From: a bacterium
GTDB taxonomy: Bacteria; SAR324; NAC60-12
Length of the DNA stretch: 13,442 bases
Assembly (NCBI GenBank): GCA_965233585.1
Contig: CBDDTI010000576.1
Location: 1-13,442, forward strand
Direction: 5' to 3'
Part shown: in pieces, positions 2,824 through 13,442 of the stretch
How positions within the stretch are numbered: the stretch's first letter is position 1
Layout of the letters: every line of letters begins with the position of its first letter
Notes under the pieces: generated by a model
What the model was told of the DNA's origin: nothing
The model's input: only the letters and a program-made list of their open reading frames with translations
Database searches by the model: none
Translations under genes and position numbers: made by a program

Positions 2824-3366
2824 ATGGAAGTGCTGGTCAGCAATGTAAAAATTAGTTGTAAAGTTCATCTTATTAACAGCGACGAAATTTCTTTTAATAC
2901 CGATAATACAATAAAACGTTATAATAATTTTGTTGTAATAAGAAAAAAATATTCCTTTATTATATTTACCAAAACAAAACAAAATCGACATTTTCACGTA
3001 AACATTACAAAAATTCCCTCTACAGAACACATTGCGAAAGCATTAGACGAACTAAAACTTATTATAAATAGCGAATTTGTTGTTAAAATATTTAAAGTAG
3101 AAAACATGACTTGTTTGTATCAATCAAAAGAAGAGATCAAATTATTGAGATTTTACAACCATTTAAAATTGAATGAAGACTTTGAAATCATTCATAAGAG
3201 ATACGACCCAGAAAAATTCCCAGGCGTATTTTTAAAAATAAAAAAGTGTTCAGCTTTAATATTTTCGTCGGGAAAAATAGTTATAATTGGAGCCTCCAGC
3301 GAAGAAGATGCTAAACAAGGAATAAAAATTATTATTAAATTATTAAAAAAATATAAAATCGAATGA
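2824..3366 (+). CDS. Divergent TATA-binding protein (TBP)-like factor, 180 aa, core domain only
   Basis: C-terminal repeat FKVENMT...YDPEKFPGVFLKIKKCSALIFSSGKIVIIGASSEEDAKQG matches the TBP signature (YEPELFPGL...LIFxSGKxVxTGAK). The N-terminal repeat VSNVK...YNNFVVIR...IIF...VNITK is recognisable but diverged. Length from ATG 2824 equals a TBP core. AATAAA at 3407-3412. Confidence 0.92.
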   Translation: MEVLVSNVKISCKVHLINSDEISFNTDNTIKRYNNFVVIRKKYSFIIFTKTKQNRHFHVNITKIPSTEHIAKALDELKLIINSEFVVKIFKVENMTCLYQSKEEIKLLRFYNHLKLNEDFEIIHKRYDPEKFPGVFLKIKKCSALIFSSGKIVIIGASSEEDAKQGIKIIIKLLKKYKIE

Positions 3367-3422
3367 TGTGAATAATGTTTATTTAGTTGAGTTTTAATAT
3401 TTATACAATAAACATCAAAATT

Positions 3423-4181
3423 ATGCACGAGAAAGTAGATTATACTAAAATATGCAATCATGAATATCCAGTAGAAGACACCAGGCAAGGGGACGTGGTG
3501 TGTACCGAGTGTGGATTAGTTATTGATAAAATATATTGCTATAATTTAACAAAATCAAATTTGGAAACAGAATTGGACAAAATAAAAACATTTGATGAAG
3601 AAATTAAACAAAAAAACCGGCATTTAGAGAAAGAAAAAAATATTTTAAAAATTTTATGCAATAAATTACATTTAAATAATGATGTTACAAATGTTATTTT
3701 GAATCTATGGTCAGATATAGCAGCGTGGCATTATCGAAAAGGTGGAAAAATTAAAATAGATGCCAAAGGATTGGTGGTTATGACGTTGTATCAAGGGTTG
3801 ATAAAAGAAAAAATTCCCCGCCCGATAAGTCATTTGTGTCAAGAAGTCGGCGTTAATCCAAAGATAGTGTGGCGTTGGATGAAATTATACAGACGGGATT
3901 TGACTGACATGAATAAATTAGACAATTACATAAAAGCGAAAGATATGAAAGAATATTTTTTACAGCCGCTGCAGTTAAATTATCAAGAAATGACGTCCAT
4001 TGAACAAATATTAAAAAAAAATGAAAATAGTTCTTTTGCTCCAAGAACTTTATTAGCTGCATGCGCTTATGCCTTTTTAAAAGAATCCAAATTGCGATAT
4101 TTAAGCGTCAAAAATATGGCTCACATTTTAGGCGTCAGTGTTATGTCGTTGTACAGATGTCGTAAAAGTCTAAATCAATAA
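3423..4181 (+). CDS. TFIIB-like transcription initiation factor, 252 aa (zinc ribbon plus two cyclin-fold repeats)
   Basis: Zn ribbon CNHEYPVEDTRQGDVVCTECGLVID (cf. TFIIB CxxH...EDxxxGDxxCxxCGLV). Repeat 1: LCNKLHL...TLYQGLIKEKIPRPISHLCQEVGV. Repeat 2: APRTLLAACAY...SVKNMAHILGVSVMSLYR. First ATG is at 3423. Confidence 0.9.
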   Translation: MHEKVDYTKICNHEYPVEDTRQGDVVCTECGLVIDKIYCYNLTKSNLETELDKIKTFDEEIKQKNRHLEKEKNILKILCNKLHLNNDVTNVILNLWSDIAAWHYRKGGKIKIDAKGLVVMTLYQGLIKEKIPRPISHLCQEVGVNPKIVWRWMKLYRRDLTDMNKLDNYIKAKDMKEYFLQPLQLNYQEMTSIEQILKKNENSSFAPRTLLAACAYAFLKESKLRYLSVKNMAHILGVSVMSLYRCRKSLNQ

Positions 4182-4190
4182 TATACATAT

Positions 4191-4592
4191 ATGAATTACC
4201 ACAGCGGTTTACATTGGCAACGAGGTTCGGGAATTGGATCGCTTTTTTCCGGAATTTTTCGCGGATTAATGCCGGTAGCAAAATCGACGATAAAAACTAT
4301 TGGACGTGTAGCCAAAAGCGCCCCGATAAAATCTGTAGGAAAAGCTTTAAAAAAAGAAGCGACAAGAGCGGCTGTAGAAACGGCGATAGAAGCTTTGGAG
4401 GGTCAACCGGTGGGCAGAAAAGCAAAACAACGTTTAAAATCCGCTACACGAGGTATTTTGCTTAACGCTGCCCGACAAGCCGATAGCAACGACGACTATC
4501 GAACTCAAAATTCGAACAGAAAAAGGAAACCCTCGTCAATTACGCAATCTAGGAAAAAAAGGCGCAAAATATTGAAAGAACCTCTGTTTTAA
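4191..4592 (+). CDS. pVII-like basic virion core (DNA-condensing) protein
   Basis: N-terminal QRGSGIGSLFSGIFRGLMP motif typical of the Maverick/adintovirus core protein. Lys/Arg-rich with C-terminal RKRK and RKKRRK, ending in a terminal Phe. Confidence 0.88.
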   Translation: MNYHSGLHWQRGSGIGSLFSGIFRGLMPVAKSTIKTIGRVAKSAPIKSVGKALKKEATRAAVETAIEALEGQPVGRKAKQRLKSATRGILLNAARQADSNDDYRTQNSNRKRKPSSITQSRKKRRKILKEPLF

Positions 4593-5681
4593 ATGTCGAC
4601 AACGACAAAAGAGACTTTTTTAAAAGAATACGCGAAACCGGGTTCGCCAATAGCTTTTGCGTCTCCCGCCCTAATCTATCATTATTATGAGAAACAAATC
4701 CCTTTGACGTTAATCGAGGAGTGGCTAAAAGGAACAGACTCCTACACATTACACAAACAGCCTAAATTTCCCAGACCGAGAAATCCAACATTTGCTTATC
4801 GAAAACGGTATCAGTTTCAAATTGACCTTATAGATTTAGGAAATTTGGCTGAACAAAATGATTCTAATAGATACCTTTTGACAGCCATTGATATTTTTAC
4901 ACGATTTGCCTTTGTAGAACCACTAAAAAATAAAATGGCAAAAACATTTATGGAAGGCTTTGAATCTATTATGAAAAGAGCAAAACAATTTCCGCGTAGA
5001 ATTTTAGCCGATAAAGGAGCGGAAATTAAGAATAAATTGTTTCAAGCCTACTGCAAAAACAATAACATTCTTCTGTTACACAGCAATAATTTTGTGCACG
5101 CCCCCTTTGTGGAAAGATTTAACCGAACTTTAAAAAACCTATTGTTTAGATACATGACTCACGAAAATACCGATAGGTACATTGACGCGTTACCCTTTCT
5201 TGTCCATACCTACAACAATCGTAAACATCGCATGATCGGAATGTCACCCGCTGAAGCAGAACTCCCCGGAAGAACCTATCACATTAGAAGAAAACAAGAA
5301 TTGGTTTATTCAAAGATTAAAAGAACGAAACCAAAATACAAAATCGGTCAAACCGTGCGTATTAGTATTATGAAGGGAAAATTTGACAGAGGATTTACGC
5401 CGCAATTCAAAGAAGAAATTTTTAAAATAAAATCAATTTCTACACGTTTGCCAAAACCCACTTATGAGTTAGAGACTTTGGAACAGGATGAAACTTTGGA
5501 AGGAAATTTTTATGAAAGTGAACTTACACCAGTAGATGAGCCAGAAGTATTTGCCATCGAAAAGATTCTCCGGACCAAAAAAGATAAAAAAACCGGAGAA
5601 AAAATGGCTTTAATAAAATGGAAAGGGTATAAAAACCCTAGTTGGACATACGAAAAAGACATAGTCGATATGCCACAATAG
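4593..5681 (+). CDS. Retroviral-like (rve, DDE) integrase with C-terminal chromodomain, Maverick type
   Basis: FQIDLIDL (D), YLLTAIDIFTRF, ILADKGAE (D), VERFNRTLK (E), YNNRKHRMIGMSP, PKYKIGQTVRI, FYESEL, and chromodomain-like AIEKIL...LIKWKGY...SW. Intact 362-aa ORF whose ATG directly abuts the upstream TAA. Confidence 0.96.
   Translation: MSTTTKETFLKEYAKPGSPIAFASPALIYHYYEKQIPLTLIEEWLKGTDSYTLHKQPKFPRPRNPTFAYRKRYQFQIDLIDLGNLAEQNDSNRYLLTAIDIFTRFAFVEPLKNKMAKTFMEGFESIMKRAKQFPRRILADKGAEIKNKLFQAYCKNNNILLLHSNNFVHAPFVERFNRTLKNLLFRYMTHENTDRYIDALPFLVHTYNNRKHRMIGMSPAEAELPGRTYHIRRKQELVYSKIKRTKPKYKIGQTVRISIMKGKFDRGFTPQFKEEIFKIKSISTRLPKPTYELETLEQDETLEGNFYESELTPVDEPEVFAIEKILRTKKDKKTGEKMALIKWKGYKNPSWTYEKDIVDMPQ
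5628..5634 (+). promoter_or_regulatory. Candidate TATA box for the penton gene, inside the integrase coding sequence
   Basis: TATAAAA starts 60 nt upstream of ATG 5688, and the intergenic gap is only 6 nt. It could simply reflect the G-Y-K-N codons in AT-rich DNA. Confidence 0.3.
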
Positions 5682-5687
5682 CGCGGA

Positions 5688-7427
5688 ATGGATTATAACA
5701 TTTATTGCGTGTCAAACGCTAGTTCCGATACGGATGACAAAAATACTTTAAATTCTTTTACCAATTTATTTCCACAAAATTTAGACTTGAAAGATAGAGA
5801 ATGGGAAATTGGAATAGTGTCTATTGGATTACATTATAATTACAACCAATTAGCTTTGTCAAAAGGCCAACCTTGTTTTATCACGTTAAAAAACGAATTA
5901 ACATCTATAGACTCTTCGGAAGAAGACATAAGGTCCGAAATTTTAGACCAGACAAAATCCATTTGGGTTTTGCCTGATTTAGATGAAGATGTATTGACAG
6001 TGCATAGACTGATGCAAAACTTGATGCAATATATTTACAAGGAAGGAATGAGATTGTATAGTTTTAAACCCAAATCAGGGGGTAAAGATGAAAAAGCTTA
6101 CGTAATAGATGAAAATCCGAAAAAAGAAATGGAAAATGAAAATTACAATTATAATAGATATTTGTTGATACATAAACATTTAATAAAAATTTTAAGGTTA
6201 AAATATTACCAAAACGGCTTTGTGTCCTCCCAAGCAAAAACAATTAAGTTATTCGACAACGAATATGCATACTTTTCTGTAAAGAAAAATTTTGCGCTTC
6301 TAACTACAGCAATTAATGCGTATTCCGTTTTGAAGCCCGGTCTGGTTCAAATAAAATCAAATATTATTTCCGACGTTCCCAGCGGAAATAGTTATTCTAC
6401 AATTATGTTTACAACGACTTTGCCTAATCAAATGGAAGGTCATTATTTTTACCATAATGTAAAAAAAATCAGATATTATCAGGTGCGACAAACCAATATC
6501 GAAACGATAAACACACAATTTACAGATTCTTTTGGAAATCTTTTAAGTTTAAACGAAGGACAGCCGTCTATAGTGCATTTTCATTTAAAAGAAAAAGACA
6601 AAAATATGGATTACGAATTAACGCACGTACGAATTGATTCACAAGTAGATACCAAATTGAATTACGAAAATACAAATAGTAGCTTTTGGGTGCACTTAAA
6701 ACATCCAATAAGTTTGAATCAAAACGCAAAAATAGCCTTGATGGATATATCTTTTCCCAACACCATATGTAGCATTCCAGAATCAATTGGAAGGAATCCG
6801 TTTATCTTTAATGTGTTGATGAACCAAAACGAAACAAAAAGACACGTCGTGGAAATACCAAAACTTTATTTCTGCAACTCTGATGATCTAACAACATCAA
6901 TGAACCGTCTGTTATCTGAAGAACTAAAGGAAATTTTACATTTTGACAACTTTAACGGATTCTTTAGGATTGTGGCTAAAACAAATAAACCCTTTTCGAT
7001 AAGCATTCCCAAAAACTTTTGCCCGTTTTTAGGAATGTACGATTACACGGAGAAAGAACTTGCAAGAATTGAGGAACGAGGTGATTACGTCACGCTTGCA
7101 GTGACTAAGGAAAGATTTTTTGAAGCACCACAACCAATAGACGTTTACAAGTTATATCCCGGTGTTATGATATGTTATGCAAATTTTGTTCAACATTCCA
7201 TTATTGGAGACAAATTTTACCCAATATTTAGAGTTATACCAACAATCGGCCAATCCACACAAAATGATTACTGTTCTATCCATTTCGAACATTTAGAATT
7301 CATAAGATGCAATGTCGATTATTTAGACAACATGAAGATCGAGCTGAGGAGATTAGACGGGAATTTGATTGAATTTAACGACGATCGAAGAGTAATTTTA
7401 AACATTGTAATTAAAAATCCGATTTAA
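5688..7427 (+). CDS. Minor capsid protein (penton-like) with two tandem single-jelly-roll modules, 579 aa
   Basis: Module 1: SNAS...NTLNSFTNLFPQNLDL...WEIGIVSI ... IETINTQFTDSFGNLL...IVHFHLK. Module 2 from Met307 (6606): DS...NTNSSFWVHLKHPISL...KIALMDISFP ... ICYANFVQHSIIGD...LDNMKIELRRLDGNLIEF...ILNIVIK. Confidence 0.88.
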   Translation: MDYNIYCVSNASSDTDDKNTLNSFTNLFPQNLDLKDREWEIGIVSIGLHYNYNQLALSKGQPCFITLKNELTSIDSSEEDIRSEILDQTKSIWVLPDLDEDVLTVHRLMQNLMQYIYKEGMRLYSFKPKSGGKDEKAYVIDENPKKEMENENYNYNRYLLIHKHLIKILRLKYYQNGFVSSQAKTIKLFDNEYAYFSVKKNFALLTTAINAYSVLKPGLVQIKSNIISDVPSGNSYSTIMFTTTLPNQMEGHYFYHNVKKIRYYQVRQTNIETINTQFTDSFGNLLSLNEGQPSIVHFHLKEKDKNMDYELTHVRIDSQVDTKLNYENTNSSFWVHLKHPISLNQNAKIALMDISFPNTICSIPESIGRNPFIFNVLMNQNETKRHVVEIPKLYFCNSDDLTTSMNRLLSEELKEILHFDNFNGFFRIVAKTNKPFSISIPKNFCPFLGMYDYTEKELARIEERGDYVTLAVTKERFFEAPQPIDVYKLYPGVMICYANFVQHSIIGDKFYPIFRVIPTIGQSTQNDYCSIHFEHLEFIRCNVDYLDNMKIELRRLDGNLIEFNDDRRVILNIVIKNPI

Positions 7428-7429
7428 AT

Positions 7430-7443
7430 TTTATTTCAATAAA
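7430..7443. terminator. Back-to-back polyadenylation signals at a convergent gene junction
   Basis: AATAAA on + at 7438-7443, just after the penton stop. AATAAA on - at 7435-7430, immediately after the TGA of the 7436..7741 ORF. Confidence 0.55.
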
Positions 7444-7741
7444 ACAATTTATTTGAAAATAACGAATTATTGGTGAGATTTAATAAAGAAATATCTACTA
7501 AAGTTTGATTCGCAAAATTAAGCGCCTTTAAACCGTTATAAGTTAGTCCGTACATTAACCAAAGAAAAACGGAAGTAATAACAATAATTGATAAAATCAT
7601 CGCGCACAGACTACAACAATCGTTTCTTGAACAAAAATCAGGAGATTGCAAATCTTGATGAAACGTATCTTGGTCTACTTCTTCAAAACGGGATGTTTTA
7701 TCTTGGTCAGAATTTGACGTTCGGCGCAAAGAGACGCTCAT
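7436..7741 (-). CDS. Small single-pass membrane protein (101 aa), unknown function
   Basis: Polar N-terminus, Cys cluster (FCSRNDCCSLC), hydrophobic AMILSIIVITSVFLWLMYGL, then three N-x-S/T sequons (NQT, NLT, NNS). Its ATG overlaps the upstream stop (ATGA), and a poly(A) signal follows the stop. Confidence 0.7.
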   Translation of the reverse strand: MSVSLRRTSNSDQDKTSRFEEVDQDTFHQDLQSPDFCSRNDCCSLCAMILSIIVITSVFLWLMYGLTYNGLKALNFANQTLVDISLLNLTNNSLFSNKLFY

Positions 7742-8139
7742 ACTTCTACTACTTCTTCACGAATTGGATAATGTTCTAAACAGAAATCTTTACACAACAA
7801 TTTCATGCAAAATGACGCATAAAAATGGAAAACTTTCATTTCATTCGAAATTTCACGATGCCACCATAATTTGGTATCGGAGTCGCGTGAATTATTAAGT
7901 TTGCCAAGAAGTTTGTCTTTGATGCAAGCCCTGTACTGCACCAATTCACTGTCCAGAGATTCTAATGCTTCGTTGATTTTACGAAGATGCGCGCACATGC
8001 GACGCAAAGAATGATGCACAACGCGGTTCGGGTCGGAAGTATCATAAATACCGGTAACATCAGGACCGGTATATTCGTCTCCCCAGTCGGAATTGTGCGA
8101 CGATGATGATTTTGACTGCTTGTTGTCTTGACCACTCAT
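7738..8139 (-). CDS. Hypothetical protein (133 aa), probably helical/coiled-coil
   Basis: Open frame from ATG 8139 (MSGQDNKQ) with a Ser-rich N-terminus and an amphipathic stretch LRKINEALESLDSELVQY. Coupled by an ATGA overlap to the membrane protein gene. No family recognised. Confidence 0.6.
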   Translation of the reverse strand: MSGQDNKQSKSSSSHNSDWGDEYTGPDVTGIYDTSDPNRVVHHSLRRMCAHLRKINEALESLDSELVQYRACIKDKLLGKLNNSRDSDTKLWWHREISNEMKVFHFYASFCMKLLCKDFCLEHYPIREEVVEV

Positions 8140-8245
8140 GATGCACAACTGAAACAATATATTACACAGACATTTCTAATAAATATTAAAAGCGCGCTCG
8201 AACTTTCGAAGTGGTTTGTCACAATTTTAAAATTCTTGCACGTGA

Positions 8246-8940
8246 CTTGATAAATTAAAATCTAGCCAGCGTACAGGAATTTAAAAAGCATGACCAATGT
8301 TCTTGATAATGAAGTCTTGCGCTTGGGTGTGCTTCCGACGATGTAGATTGCTTCCAATCTTAAGGCATTTGTAGGGTTCAAATTATTTTTAAAAAATTTG
8401 AACGGTACACCTACCAAAAGAACGAGAAGCCGATGTTCACAATTAATGATGAAAACAATCACAAACGCATTCACCAATAAAATATTATAGCACAATTTAC
8501 TAATTATAAACACGTATTTGACGAAGTATTCGAAGTAACTTCTCATAGTTTATTGACCATAGAGTATTGCTTAATAAAATAAAAATTAAGCAAATAATCT
8601 ACAGTGAAAAAGCATGAGGGAGAATAATCTTCTTGATGACGATGATGTGGATTATTTACAATCTTAAGGCGTTTGTAAAACGCAAATAATGTATGGAAAA
8701 ATTTGAGCTTCACATACTGCCAAAAGAGTGTAAAGAACGGTATTCTTGATGGATGATGAAAACCACTCACAAATTAAATTAACATGTCGCATTTTATAAA
8801 ATCTTATTCGGCGGAGTATTTGAAGTGCCTTCTCATAATTTATCGGCCCTTGGGTAGAGCTTAATAAAATAATTCAGCAGCTACACAAAGGTCAAAAAAG
8901 CGTGAGAAAATGTTCTTGGCAATTAGGATGAAGATATTTC
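8246..8940. repeat. Diverged direct tandem repeat, ~290-325 bp unit, two copies plus part of a third
   Basis: Unit starts cttgataaattaaaa / cttaataaaataaaa / cttaataaaataatt at 8246, 8570 and 8860, each followed by aaaaagc(a/g)tga...aat(g/c)ttcttg. Shared blocks caatcttaaggc(a/g)tttgta at 8355/8659 and agtatt(c/t)gaagt..cttctcata.tttat at 8525/8815. Confidence 0.75.
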
Positions 8941-9779
8941 GCTGTTTATGATTTTCTAGTTTTTTGCATACAAAATAGACTGAGAAATTTCAAACTCACT
9001 CTAAAATGTACACAAGGACCAAAAAATCGTGAATAACAATCTTGACAACAAAAAAATAATGATTATAAATTAAAGTAGAATTGTAGATCGTTTGACGTTT
9101 TAAAGCGATTATGAGAAGTCTAAATGAATTTGTTAAAAATTTAAACCCGTCACATTCGCTAAAAACATGAAACGTTGTAATTTTCTGACTCGAGGATGTG
9201 TGTTTTGATGGGAGTTGATGGTTGATCATAATTTTATCGTTTGTTGGAGATCCGAATTATTTTCCGGGAACTTTCGGACCACCCAGCCAAACAATAAAAG
9301 CATGAAACCTAACAATTTTTTCTTTTATCACTTTTAAAATATTTGGTTGTTGCTTGCTCACAATGTTGTGGCATTCGTGAAAATCCAAAATAAATTGAAA
9401 ATTTGGAGATTTACAGGATTGCCACGAAATTGTAAGGTAAGTGCCGAATTTCTTGATACGTGTTGAATTTTGGATTGATTGAAATTGACTGTGAAATTTG
9501 TTACATCAATGTTGAGGAAAAGCATTTGGACACCCCTTCCCAACGTGATTAAAATTTGAGCTTAAATCTTTGCATACGGCGCGAGATGAAATTTAAAACG
9601 CGTTGGCGCGCGAGTTGCTTTAATTTTAAAGAAATAAAGTTTGGACATGAAAGAATATTTGAGGAACAGTCAAACCGTTTCAAACACGCGGAAATTGAAC
9701 GTTTTCCGTTCTCAGAACCTTTCTTCGCGCCCCCGAACTGATTCAAGACGTGGAAAGTGGAAAAAATTGAGATTGCAAA

Positions 9780-10090
9780 CGGCTTGCAACAGGCTCAATC
9801 GAGCCTGTAATCGGCTTGCAACAGGCCGATTGCAGACGAAAACAAGCCGATTACAGGCTCGATTGAGCCTGTTGCAAGCCGATTGCAGACGAAAACAAGC
9901 CGATTGCAGGCTCGATTGAGCCTGTTGCAAGCCGATTGCAGACGAAAACAAGCCGATTACAGGCTCGATTGAGGTTGTTGCAAGCCGATTGCAGACGAAA
10001 ACAAGCCGATTGCAGGCTCGATTGAGGTTGTTGCAAGCCGATTGCAGACGAAAACAAGCCGGTTGCAGACGATTACAAGCCGATTTCAGG
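9780..10090. repeat. 53-bp tandem array (4 full copies plus a partial) preceded by an inverted partial copy
   Basis: Unit gccgattgcagacgaaaacaagccgatt(a/g)caggctcgattgag(cc/gt)tgttgcaa starts at 9825, 9878, 9931, 9984 and 10037. 9780-9818 is the exact reverse complement of 9843-9881. Confidence 0.97.
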
Positions 10091-10186
10091 TTGAAACAAC
10101 CTTAATGTAGATGCCATCATTAAGGTGTTTTGAGAACGTTTTAAGGTGATTTTAGAGCGTAACAAGCTCGAATGAGAGTGATGTAG

Positions 10187-10645
10187 GGACATTACTCCAC
10201 AACAAAGGCCCAACGCCCTAGCCCCAACACCAGAGGTACCGGCACCTCAGAGAAGCGGCGATGCTTCTACTGCGACGGAGAAGGCCACATTCGCGACCGC
10301 TGTCCCACATCCCTCAACGATTACCTTTGACAGCAAACCCGGATGGGGAATCGCCGACCTCCACAGGCCCTCGGCAGGGCGCGACATCCGCTGCACCGAT
10401 CAGCGGCATCTGGCACCAAGAAGGTGAAGTTTGCCAAAGCTACCAACACTCTACCCATCGTGGCCGAGAGCTATGGGAAACCACACGTAGCTGCCCTCGA
10501 GGAGGATACGGGCGCATCCGGAGCTGAGGACGAACCCTGGAATGACGTGGACCTGACCACATACGATGAAGCTACCGTGGCTGCGCTGTATGAGGAACTT
10601 CAGGACATACCCGAGGATGAGCTGGATTTTCTGGAGGGACAGTAG
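10187..10645 (+). pseudogene. gag: gag C-terminal fragment with zinc knuckle
   Basis: Frame 2 reads RRCFYCDGEGHIRDRCP (C-x2-C-x4-H-x4-C, 10262-10303), has a premature TGA at 10328-10330, then continues in the same frame to the acidic tail ...ELDFLEGQ* (TAG 10643-10645). Confidence 0.85.
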
Positions 10646-10674
10646 ATGAAAAGGCCCTTCCCTGCTGTCCCTTC
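10624..10674 (+). promoter_or_regulatory. Putative programmed -1 ribosomal frameshift signal (gag-pol)
   Basis: G GAT TTT heptamer in gag register at 10624-10630. Stem gggacagtag (10636-10645) pairs with ctgctgtccc (10662-10671). The -1 frame is open from 10630 into the pol ORF annotated at 10777. Confidence 0.75.
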
Positions 10675-13442
10675 TCCAACAAGACCCGTCCACCTGAAAT
10701 AGAGTTCATCAACCCCACGCTATCAGTAGGCAATAATTCTCAACTCTTTACTGATAGTTATCCCTCTTTTACAGCCATGTGTCCGACCATTACTCCTGTG
10801 GCTGAGATAAATCTCCAGCCTGGCCGAGCACACGGATATAGCGCATACGTCCCCATTCGGTTAGGAAAGCTCGCGATCAACGCCTTCGTTGACAGCGGGA
10901 ATTCCTTCGCCAACGTTATCTCCCCACAGATGATGACCGCCCTTGGCATTAAGACTTCACAACTGGAGCCCATACACCAACTCTCCTTTGGCACTGCGGC
11001 TGCGGGCAAGAAAATGAAGGTACTAGGACAGGCCTCGCGACTCGAACTGCAATTTGGCCAACACCTGGCGAAATTCCGCATCCGACCCCTGGTGCTACAA
11101 GGATTGGTGCACCCTCTGAACCTGTGTGGGCCGTTCCTTCGACGTGTCGGGATAGATCAACTCCACTCCCGGGGCATTTGGCGGATCCACGGAATAGAAG
11201 TCCCGATGTTCTCCCCTCATCGCACAAAGTTGCTGCCGTCTTCTCCTGAGGTGTGCACCCTCCACTTGGCCACGCCCTCCACAGGTCAACAACATTATCA
11301 TCCATACGGGCCGTCGGTCGAAGCTCGATCTGGCCCCGAGGCGAGGAGGATTGAAGGAAGATCTTGCTGTGTCCTACCTGTACAACTGGAGCTGCCTCTT
11401 CCTGCGGGAGCCCTAGTGTTACTCCAGCCCACCGCGCGATCTCTCCTAGGCGATAACCCGGTTCTGCAGGAGGTCCGGGCCGATGGCAGCCTGGCCGTGT
11501 TGGTTGACAATCTAGAATGTGTAGATGTCGACCTAGAACCAGGTGCCCTTGTTGGATCTGTGCAAGATGTCACCACCACTCCGACCATGATCCACGCGGA
11601 TAACTCTCCCCCTCCGGAAGCCTCCACGCACGCCGAGTTTGATGCCCTTCCTCAAGATGAGAAGATCAAGTGGCTGGTGACACAATTTCGACTCGACGAG
11701 GCCCCAGTGCTACAAAGGGACCCCCGCCTGCGGAAGGAAGTCATCCGCACCCTACTCCAATTCTCCGACGTCATCTCGATCTGTGGGTATGGTAAGACTA
11801 ACCTTATCTCTCATCCGGGGATTACTCCAATCAAGATGAAGCACCGACCATTGAATCCTGTCATGGAAGAATCTCTACGACAACAGATTGATCGGTGGTT
11901 GGAACAGTGGGTGGTAGAGGAAGCAGACTCGCCGTGGTCTTTTCCTCTTGTCCCCGTTCCCAAGAAGAATAGCAAGGAGGTCCGCTGGGCTGTCGACCAC
12001 ATGAAGCTCAATGCCGTCACAAAGAAGGATGCCTTCCCGCTCCCCAATATCGCCGACAACCTGTCTCGCCTTGCCGGTAGCCACGTCTTCTCTGCTCTTG
12101 ATGGAGCCAGAGCCTTCCATGCCGTCCCTGTACGGTGCGCAGATTGGGAGAAAACGGCGTTCTCTTCCCCGTTTGGACAGTACCAGTTCGTTAGGATGCC
12201 CTTTGGCTTGGCCAACGCCCCCGACACTGACTCGAGGCTGGTCGCCAGAGCGTTGCACCATTTGCCTTCATCGGAAGTCCTTTGCTACCTGGACGACACG
12301 GCTGTCCACTCCAAGGATGCTTGGTCCTCCACAAAGTCTTGACAGCTTTCGGTGCCGCCGGCCTCCAAATCTCACCGGGAAAGGCCCAATTGTTCCGGGA
12401 TCACATCAAATACTTGGGACATGAGATCAGCACTCGCGGGATCAGCATTTCTCCGGAGTACACTTCCGTCATCAAAGATTGGCCGATCCCCGACACTCTG
12501 AAGATGCTAAGGGCCTTCTTGGGGAAATGCGGGTACTACCAGCGGTCCATTGAAGACTACGCCACCATCTCTGCGCCTCTCGTCCAATACACCCAGCAGG
12601 AACAGCATGAAGGGTCCCCCAGTTTCAATGAGAACCCTTCATCCTTGACACCGACTTTAGTCGCAGGATGGGCAGGAGCGAGTGATCGCCTATGGAGCAC
12701 GACTGCTTCTGCCAAGGGAGCAAAGTTATGCCTCAACCAAGGGAGAGCTACTTGCGGTAATCTTCTTCCTCTAGTACTATAAATATTACCTTTTACACAG
12801 GCCCTTTATTTTGCGTACTGACAACCTGGCACTCACCTGGATTCGCTCCTTGGAATCCCCAACCGGGATGATCCTGCGATGGTTGGAGATCCTCGCCAGC
12901 TTTGGTTTCACTGTCAAACACAGGAAGGGCACTCTACATGGAAACTCAGACTCCCTGTCCCGGGCACCTCACGCATCTTTCCCTTCCCGGGAAGAAGAAA
13001 AGGTCCTCGTGAGTGACGAGGCCACCGTCATCGCTGCCATACAAGCTCCCCCAGGATTCACTGCGGAAGAGATCAAGGATCACCTAAAGAGGGATGAGCA
13101 TCTTCAAGATGTTTAAAGGTGGAAGACAGAGCCGCCCTCCGAGACGGAGAAACAATTGCTGTCTCCTGACCAGAGAAGGCTCCTTGCATTCCTGCCTTCC
13201 CTGCATCAAGATCCTTCCTCCGGTCTCTGAAGTCTTCAGACCCAAAAAGAGGGAACCTTGAGTGAAGCGCCTCTACGTCCCCCACGCCCTGCGCCATCGG
13301 GTCATCGAAGCCGCTCATCTGTTTTTAGGACATGCTGGCATCAATGCCACTGCTCACTTCTGCCGGAAACGGGTCTACATGTTCTGGTTGGTACCGGAAG
13401 TCCATCGCATCCTCCACCAATGTCACGCATGTGAAGTGAAGA
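10630..13442 (+). pseudogene. pol: pol polyprotein (aspartic protease, RT, RNase H, start of integrase), disrupted
   Basis: AFVDSG (10891); SPWSFPLVPVPKK, KTAF, MPFGLANAP and YLDD (12286-12297); frameshift near 12325; YLGH and LRAFLGKCGYY; RNase H FILDTD, ERVIAYGAR, ELLAV, RTDN, DSLSR with in-frame TAG at 12772-12774; integrase zinc domain AAHLFLGHAG...CHAC (about 13310-13432). Confidence 0.95.

Follow-up and report, generated by a model that had tools for sequence, protein, structure and literature searches.

A TBP–TFIIB gene pair in a Maverick/Polinton clade and a non-canonical box before the capsid gene: a candidate virus-encoded route to host RNA polymerase II

Introduction

Among described systems, the closest to the one considered here is the viral preinitiation complex (vPIC) of beta- and gammaherpesviruses, in which a protein that has the TATA-binding protein (TBP) fold acts with the host's RNA polymerase II (Pol II) at minimal late promoters built on a modified TATA element. 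The TBP-fold protein is ORF24 in KSHV (Kaposi's sarcoma-associated herpesvirus), BcRF1 in Epstein-Barr virus (EBV) and UL87 in human cytomegalovirus (HCMV), and the KSHV late promoters carry TATTWAA, placed some 30 bp ahead of the start site (PMC6541308). There is further precedent in Nucleocytoviricota that lack an RNA polymerase, where homologues of TBP and of transcription factor IIB (TFIIB) have been proposed to redirect host Pol II; Chrysochromulina parva virus BQ1 is described as having TBP and TFIIB without a viral RNA polymerase (PMC12085832), and ariadnaviruses as having TFIIB only (10.64898/2026.08.29.747986). Here we describe a TBP gene and a TFIIB gene that lie side by side in a Maverick/Polinton element on contig CBDDTI010000576.1, a stretch of 13,442 nucleotides (nt) that was analysed whole and is referred to below as the window; it is one entire contig from an assembly (GCA_965233585.1) that comprises 12 Mb in 747 contigs. 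The pair is a real and widespread feature of these elements.

Mavericks/Polintons are mostly known as genomic fossils, and the pair bears on the control of their genes, including any early/late programme. The published Maverick core set of eight genes includes neither TBP nor TFIIB (PMC8097293), and the transcription factor reported in some polintoviruses is VLTF3 (PMC11131425). Neither TBP nor TFIIB is mentioned in PMC11161782, PMC8097293, PMC10748475, PMC11131425 or PMC12220804, and TFIIB is treated only for giant viruses in 10.1101/2022.05.25.493380. A first-pass annotation of this DNA had regarded the pair as new to Mavericks, and our literature search, with most subscription papers and all Repbase annotations outside its scope, found no description of a TBP and TFIIB pair in Mavericks or Polintons. 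The claim to novelty is narrowed by the algal giant-virus pair mentioned above and by a lone 'TBP' label, without TFIIB, that Starrett et al. give to MELD viruses in the legend to its Fig. 5 (PMC8502044). The pair thus appears undescribed in Polintons, the strategy itself being known from other viruses.

The TBP and TFIIB proteins

The two open reading frames (ORFs) occupy positions 2824-3366 and 3423-4181 of the forward strand and are, as the first-pass annotation had it, intact, adjacent, co-oriented and intronless. Other parts of that description needed adjustment. The capsid ATG, at 2817, does lie 6 nt from the TBP ATG, but it is on the reverse strand, so that the two genes are head-to-head and the capsid gene is not a same-direction neighbour upstream. 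The next ORF does begin at 4191, 9 nt past the TFIIB stop, but its 'pVII-like' label found no Pfam match. The base composition of the pair, said to resemble that of the viral genes, nearly does so, its GC content of 0.28-0.30 being slightly lower than the 0.30-0.40 of the other element genes. The annotation was right that an RNA polymerase is missing: we found no DFDGD-type motif in two complete 22.9-kb copies of the element or in the ORFs of 94 related loci, and no other recognisable transcription factor in the complete copies.

The first ORF encodes a protein of 180 amino acids (aa), a two-repeat saddle without an N-terminal extension. It matches PF00352 with an E-value of 4e-19 (68.5 bits, where the cut-off is 22.9), a sequence search of the PDB gives the same identity, and all top Foldseek matches of its AlphaFold model (predicted local distance difference test, pLDDT, 92.5) are TBPs, with E-values down to 8e-11 and template modelling (TM) scores of about 0.63-0.76. 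Profile searches placed archaeal TBPs (1e-25) ahead of eukaryotic ones (4e-21 or weaker). As in the cellular TBP-TFIIB complexes (PDB 1VOL and 1C9B; archaeal 1AIS and 1D3U), the saddle retains the Phe pairs, the Asn pair and one acidic residue in the C-terminal stirrup: N7, F48, N94, F132 and F147 are kept in all 51 viral TBPs compared, which have F (41) or Y (10) at position 36. In contrast to the cellular protein, the N-terminal DNA face has Lys/Ser/Asn/Lys substitutions, with K9, S11 and K63 standing where four cellular-type matches have small or apolar residues; the N-terminal stirrup is shortened; and the C-terminal stirrup is altered and has a basic residue (K or R at position 131 in 43/51). 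In cellular TBP the C-terminal stirrup contacts TFIIB with two Glu residues (PMC10005294). The second and more important of these is kept in 46/51 viral TBPs; in place of the first, at 128, Asn stands in 46/51, and the window has D there.

A likeness to a yeast mutant bears on which DNA the viral saddle might bind. TBPm3 (I194F, V203T, L205V) has relaxed specificity and binds TGTA as well as TATA (PMC1636458). At the corresponding places the viral TBPs have F in 50/52, T in 48/52, the window's subfamily having S instead, and I or L in 51/52, and the box before the capsid gene, described below, is TGTTTAA in 6 of the 52 loci compared at these places. This correlation fits a saddle whose DNA specificity may be relaxed or shifted.

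The second ORF encodes a compact TFIIB of 252 aa in which, as in cellular TFIIB, a zinc ribbon is followed by two cyclin repeats. The ribbon's match to PF08271 scores 29.1 bits, where 29 is the cut-off, and its pattern is C-x-H...C-x-x-C, with C11, H13, D19, C27 and C30 each kept in 90% or more of 122 sequences. The nearest solved relative is human TFIIB, matched over the whole length with an E-value of 2e-4 by the single sequence and 1e-29 by a profile of the 122 sequences; the same profile gave 5e-15 for Brf1 and 3e-12 for Brf2. Foldseek returned TFIIB chains in preinitiation complex structures as the best matches of the predicted model (E 3.6e-9), and VIA-align gave Z-scores of 11.7-12.9 for TFIIB, TFB and Brf2 and at most 10.6 for cyclins; the predicted TM score of the model is 0.44, and the mutual orientation of its cyclin repeats is unreliable. 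The TBP and TFIIB folds proposed by the first-pass annotation were therefore upheld by Pfam, Foldseek, AlphaFold and profile searches alike.

The viral TFIIB departs from the human protein between ribbon and core, where the spacer measures 43 residues against 82, is variable in sequence and has a pLDDT below 50 at residues 38-65; neither the alignment nor the model contains a conserved B-reader or B-linker. This short, unconserved spacer lowers the label 'canonical TFIIB' but not 'works like TFIIB'. There is no Brf-type C-terminal extension, the protein stopping at the last helix of repeat 2. A predicted complex of TBP with the TFIIB core (residues 64-252) scored 0.01 against a mark of 0.32, and we counted it neither way.

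Conservation, selection and synteny

Both factors are present in 35 of the 39 capsid-bearing contigs of the assembly; of the other four, two seem truncated or rearranged and two have only distant matches. The copies fall into TBP identity groups near 95-100, 76-78, 40 and 36-39%, and most are full-length ORFs (39 of 42 TBP and 39 of 43 TFIIB matches). The first-pass annotation had named neutral evolution as an outcome that would count against it. We found instead that both genes are under purifying selection, the ratio of nonsynonymous to synonymous substitution rates (dN/dS) being 0.13-0.31 for TBP in 8 of 9 pairs, the ninth being saturated. For TFIIB all 9 pairs gave values of 0.16-0.30. The ratios of both factors resemble those of the protease and the 133-aa gene and exceed those of the capsid (0.02-0.16) and the integrase.

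Outside the assembly, the TFIIB profile matched 602 clusters (50% identity) at E ≤1e-3 and 168 at ≤1e-10, the best 150 being mostly 200-290 aa long, and 749 proteins matched the TBP profile, the best 120 being listed; the tails of both sets may include cellular proteins. Scans of IMG/VR with three alignments gave no relative. Loci were collected through a distant TBP subgroup: 80 were kept from 106 metagenome loci and, together with six contigs in bacterial metagenome-assembled genomes (MAGs), made 86 outside loci, to which eight from the assembly were added to give the 94 referred to above. The six MAG contigs (L089-L094) carry the labels Oxalobacteraceae, Flavobacterium and Lentimicrobium and are probably mis-binned Polintons; we ascribe the cluster name 'hypothetical protein [Flavobacterium sp.]' among the TBP matches to the same mis-binning.

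As far as the contigs reach, the outside loci share one block, in which protease and capsid genes run leftward and TBP, TFIIB, a small basic ORF, integrase and minor capsid genes run rightward; the small basic ORF was not detected in L066. The order from capsid to integrase that the first-pass annotation had suggested looking for in other Mavericks is thus found across them. TFIIB follows TBP in 83/83 outside loci that leave 150 nt or more for it, and the major capsid protein (MCP) gene faces TBP in 69/69 that leave 300 nt or more; since the loci were found through TBP, these counts show linkage and not the share of Polintons that carry the pair. The arrangement is fixed down to about 30-40% identity. 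The best explanation of these data is that TBP and TFIIB are core genes of this Maverick/Polinton clade.

Two promoter classes and a codon footprint

Promoter motifs were counted in 55 loci with less than 85% TBP identity to one another (47 outside, 8 from the assembly), in a region 30-130 nt before each ATG, with the number of loci varying with the start codons that could be placed and with expectations taken from dinucleotide shuffles. The heptamer TAT(C/T)TAA (searched as TAT[CT]TAA) precedes the MCP gene in 35 of 48 loci (shuffle mean 4.0, maximum 10), the packaging ATPase gene in 11 of 26 (mean 1.7, maximum 6) and p124 in 7 of 27 (mean 1.6, maximum 5), as against 0 of 27 for the N-terminal part of the polymerase and 3 of 50 for TBP. 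TATAAA or TATATA shows the opposite distribution, being found before the polymerase in 13/27 (2.2 expected) and TBP in 17/50 (4.0 expected) and depleted before MCP (1/48, 8.6 expected). Furthermore, a TATA element with CAGT 28-35 nt downstream, which we take to be an arthropod-type initiator, occurs before TBP in 12/50 (0.26 expected) and before the polymerase in 5/27 (0.06 expected). There are, then, two promoter classes: canonical TATA plus CAGT before TBP and polymerase, and TAT(C/T)TAA before capsid and ATPase.

TATCTAA is the commonest form of the capsid box (23/52). The distance from this box to the capsid ATG is mostly 64-146 nt, and varies because its distance to the TBP frame is fixed, whereas the ATPase boxes cluster at -36 to -51 (10 of 15 sites), as canonical TATA boxes do. 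Since the capsid box lies inside the TBP gene, conservation of the TBP protein could mimic a conserved DNA motif. The following argues against this: (i) all 44 rows of the alignment use TTA for the Leu within the box, compared with 40% for Leu codons overall; (ii) this codon is the top outlier among 791 conserved columns (p 4e-18); and (iii) TTA holds in 11 of 11 representatives below 50% identity, and fourfold-degenerate third positions are only 41% identical. The box is accordingly under constraint at the DNA level.

In the window itself the candidate late promoter element is TATTAAA at 2893-2899 on the reverse strand, 82 nt before the capsid ATG and within the TBP coding sequence (CDS); relatives carry TAT(C/T)TAA near the same place. 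In a complete sister copy from the assembly (C30), TATTTAA precedes both the ATPase, at 44 nt, and p124, at 34 nt. As a control we used two Polinton-like families of the same assembly that have neither TBP nor TFIIB (C304, and C322/C581/C657). In both, a canonical TATA stands 27-32 nt before the ATPase start codon, and in C304 one also precedes the presumed capsid gene. For six ORFs of C304 the canonical TATA lies 27 to 30 nt upstream of the ATG, which would leave almost no 5' leader.

Two side observations concern the same region of these elements. In the TFIIB CDS of outside loci (L089, L059 and L033 among them), about 57 codons before the stop, there is a codon-constrained site, xCA (G/C)TA ATT AA(G/A), which encodes T/S-V/L-I-K and has ATT in 37/38. 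This suggests a second embedded cis element, perhaps for downstream genes; it was not seen in the window's subfamily. In more distant families of the same assembly (L001:11914-14658, L002, L003, L006 and L007) two capsid paralogues stand in tandem, sharing about 40-57% identity with the capsid protein of the window, and the second paralogue faces TBP, with start codons that overlap or abut and a late box within TBP.

A model for late transcription and its alternatives

We consider it likely that the TBP and TFIIB of this clade are an early-made, two-protein kit that recruits host Pol II to late promoters. In this model, host TFIID and Pol II would first read the canonical TATA and CAGT elements before the DNA polymerase and TBP-TFIIB genes; the motifs are there in the relatives, and the early timing is our supposition. 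Viral TBP, with its altered DNA face, would then bind TAT(C/T)TAA, or TATTAAA in the window's subfamily, and the compact viral TFIIB would clamp the TBP-box complex and dock on Pol II through its zinc ribbon, steps for which the predicted folds and conserved residues are our grounds. Capsid, packaging ATPase and at least one further gene would be transcribed late from such boxes. Because the capsid box lies within the TBP gene on the opposite strand, the start of capsid transcription could damp TBP-TFIIB expression and so bring about an early-to-late switch; this shut-off of the early unit by an antisense promoter is speculative. The first-pass annotation had also suggested that the pair may act at late promoters. 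The presence of a non-canonical box before capsid and ATPase supports the promoter part of that proposal, and the action of the pair on the box is what the sequences lead us to expect.

The likeness to the herpesviral late system is close in some respects. The window's capsid box, TATTAAA, and the ATPase box of its subfamily, TATTTAA, both fit the herpesviral TATTWAA, but TATCTAA lies outside that consensus; moreover, the herpesviral vPIC is a six-protein complex with a large TBP mimic, whereas here there is a 180-aa TBP with a true TFIIB homologue in a 23-kb, unrelated, integrating virus. Judged by this comparison, the likeness is probably convergent, and the element is a functional analogue of the herpesviral vPIC and not a member of that group. 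In the Nucleocytoviricota mentioned above the genomes are large and the genes scattered, accompanied by VLTF2/3 and often by capping enzymes, in contrast to two adjacent genes of a Polinton core block. A fuller version of our model is that this is the smallest known viral preinitiation kit, that its altered-specificity TBP and reader-less TFIIB are orthogonal to the host pair and work at TAT(C/T)TAA, that with two proteins it has arrived by convergence at the TATT strategy for which herpesviruses use six, that the early-to-late switch is the capsid promoter embedded antisense in TBP, and that the elements form a large undescribed Polinton clade; taken as a whole, we see this version as evenly poised between right and wrong.

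If the model is true, there is a third route, besides those of herpesviruses and algal giant viruses, by which a virus redirects Pol II with general factors of its own. A TFIIB that works without a reader would illustrate how few parts Pol II initiation requires, and a natural orthogonal set of TBP, TFIIB and promoter could be supplied. The combination of a factor pair, two promoter classes and a codon footprint makes the idea directly open to test, since only two small proteins and one motif of 7 bp are involved.

Several observations weigh against this model. The late box is missing or rare before some genes (0/36 for the protease, 1/39 for the integrase and 5/35 for the minor capsid gene), and its 9/43 occurrences before the pVII-like gene stem partly from R-Y-L-K codons. 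Within the window TATYWAA has 20 matches against 17.75 expected, and TATTAAA alone is no rarer than chance. In C30 no canonical TATA plus CAGT was found ahead of TBP, and TATTAAA also precedes TFIIB; the window's subfamily as a whole has no clear early promoter in front of TBP. The TBP-less control amounts to two families, and in the second of these the presumed capsid gene has neither box in two copies and, in a third, a late-type heptamer at -60. The motif set was picked after inspecting the same sequences, shuffle counts overstate independence because the loci are related, and the early and late classes were set by gene function and not by timing. Host TBP may, in addition, be able to use TATTTAA. 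Finally, the comparison with TBPm3 presumes that the two C-terminal Phe residues of the viral protein are yeast F190 and F207.

Some of these points would suit a pair that acts as a general booster of, or substitute for, host TBP and TFIIB on all element promoters, for instance where TFIID is limiting or the element silenced, with TAT(C/T)TAA as a weaker TATA that the host reads and that sets level or timing. The viral TBP keeps the four intercalating aromatics and both central Asn residues, so canonical TATA binding may remain, and TBPm3 binds both TGTA and TATA (PMC1636458); the absence of the late box from some virion genes points the same way. We nevertheless think this unlikely, given the sharp split into two classes with canonical TATA depleted before MCP (1/48 against 8.6 expected), the oddity of a weak box for the most abundant protein, and the canonical TATA that Polintons without TBP have before the ATPase.

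It is less probable still, and in our view quite unlikely, that the pair acts outside Pol II initiation of element genes, whether as a decoy for host Pol II or its cofactors, as a Brf-like Pol III factor or as an integrase landing pad. A TFIIB without a conserved B-reader, TBP stirrups that are shortened at the N-terminal side and changed at the C-terminal one, the shared orientation of pair and integrase, and VIA-align's placing of Brf2 level with TFIIB could each be read in this way. However, the TFIIB profile is far nearer human TFIIB than Brf1 or Brf2, the Brf extension is lacking, and this reading gives no account of a dedicated non-canonical box ahead of capsid and ATPase.

Were the proteins real transcription factors and TAT(C/T)TAA a signal for packaging, termination or replication, or a site bound by some other factor, the variable distance between box and capsid ATG (mostly 64-146 nt) would cause no difficulty; the second codon-constrained site in TFIIB, for which the model offers no reason, counts in the same direction. 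Against this, the box is strand-specific and upstream of three genes, its ATPase copies cluster at -36 to -51 and its distance to the TBP frame is fixed, and we regard such a role as very improbable. That the pair came from the host by recent capture and is carried along neutrally, as the human protein's being the nearest solved relative of TFIIB might hint, has next to no probability and is refuted by the dN/dS values and the synteny fixed to about 30-40% identity, besides the lack of introns and the mostly full-length ORFs.

The element, the rest of the window and the host

The window is best explained as containing the right-hand 10.2 kb of a Maverick/Polinton of 22.9 kb that is inserted into an animal genome. 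The length, and terminal inverted repeats (TIRs) of 541 bp, come from two complete sister copies, C30 and C77, which also carry the A32-like ATPase and the PolB-like gene. In common with described Mavericks, Polintons and adintoviruses (PMC8097293, PMC8502044, PMC11161782, PMC11131425, PMC10748475), the element is multicopy, 22.9 kb long and flanked by long TIRs, and has a chromodomain integrase, a putative protease, a probable capsid gene, an A32-like ATPase and a PolB-like gene; it thus has the RVE integrase, A32-like ATPase and long TIRs by which such elements are recognised. The ATPase, which lies outside the window, matches Pox_A32 at 25.2 bits (cut-off 22.8) in L069 and under the cut-off in L005. 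Adintoviruses in particular are marked by a PolB of the Alpha or Beta clade, an OTU domain and accessory genes of the PLA2X or GasderminX type (PMC8502044). Mavericks/Polintons range from 15 to 40 kb and have a 6-bp target site duplication. None is evident by eye at the flanks of C30 and C77, whose ends are mapped only approximately.

To the left of the pair, an ORF of 281 aa without assigned function (126-971, forward) gave nothing meaningful in a Pfam scan; it is kept in the closer families and has tblastn matches in 29 contigs. The putative adenovirus-type cysteine protease gene (989-1470, reverse) has a weak Peptidase_C5 match (E 0.029) on its open stretch, 992-1441. The window copy has only a 103-aa ORF beginning with ATG, compared with 160-aa ORFs in C328 and C30, and is out of frame near its 5' end through mutation or assembly error. 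The MCP gene (1474-2817, reverse), head-to-head with TBP, encodes 447 aa and probably a double jelly-roll. It had neither a Pfam nor a PDB sequence match; its ESM Atlas feature score is 0.98 to clusters in which 15-24% of members have PF21738. We did not accept 2991, which would give a capsid ORF of 505 aa, as the start, since in the alignment homologues begin at 2817.

To the right, the ORF at 4191-4592 (forward) encodes a basic protein of 133 aa with a Gly-rich, amphipathic N-terminal part, and its position after TFIIB is kept; it is a probable virion core or membrane-active protein. It may belong to the membrane-active class named cupiennin-like in PMC8502044, or may be akin to adenovirus pVI. 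The retroviral-type integrase (4593-5681, forward) matches rve above the cut-off (E 5e-9) and has a C-terminal chromodomain (Chromo, E 8e-5). The ORF that follows (5688-7427, forward; 579 aa) is a probable minor capsid, penton-like protein, labelled from its conserved position and its size, with no Pfam match. Two small family-specific ORFs of 101 and 133 aa occupy 7436-8139 on the reverse strand. Non-coding DNA at 8336-8872, before the right TIR, holds two degenerate direct repeats about 290-307 nt apart. The right TIR, with approximate limits 9707-10196 and internal 53-bp tandem repeats, matches both TIRs of C30. Beyond it, at 10200-13442 (forward), is flanking DNA with an unrelated, degenerate Gypsy-like long terminal repeat retrotransposon (RVT_1, E 1.5e-13; weak Asp protease match), in which GC content rises to 0.52-0.59. 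No Rfam match was found in the window.

The PolB-like gene of the sister copies consists of split ORFs with a DTDS motif and with C2H2 and Endonuclease VII domains; distant loci have unsplit ORFs to which these are 34-47% identical. The PolB-like ORFs had no Pfam polymerase match at E 0.01 and no PDB match. In C30 (about 7900-10820), and also in L005, the gene is interrupted by AT-rich GT..AG stretches of about 60 nt, probable spliceosomal introns, which would fit transcription by nuclear Pol II; it also has a 1.3-kb gap holding an antisense, low-complexity ORF of 377 aa. Mavericks of vertebrates have been reported to be intronless (PMC8097293).

The host is probably an invertebrate animal, because ORFs resembling seven-transmembrane opsins lie in the flanks of sister elements and the nearest Atlas clusters of the capsid protein are mostly from arthropods or echinoderms. 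In several contigs (C328 at 13517-52646, C705, C670 and C112) elements 95-98% identical stand as tandem or inverted neighbours, which may be arrays, concatemers or assembly artefacts.

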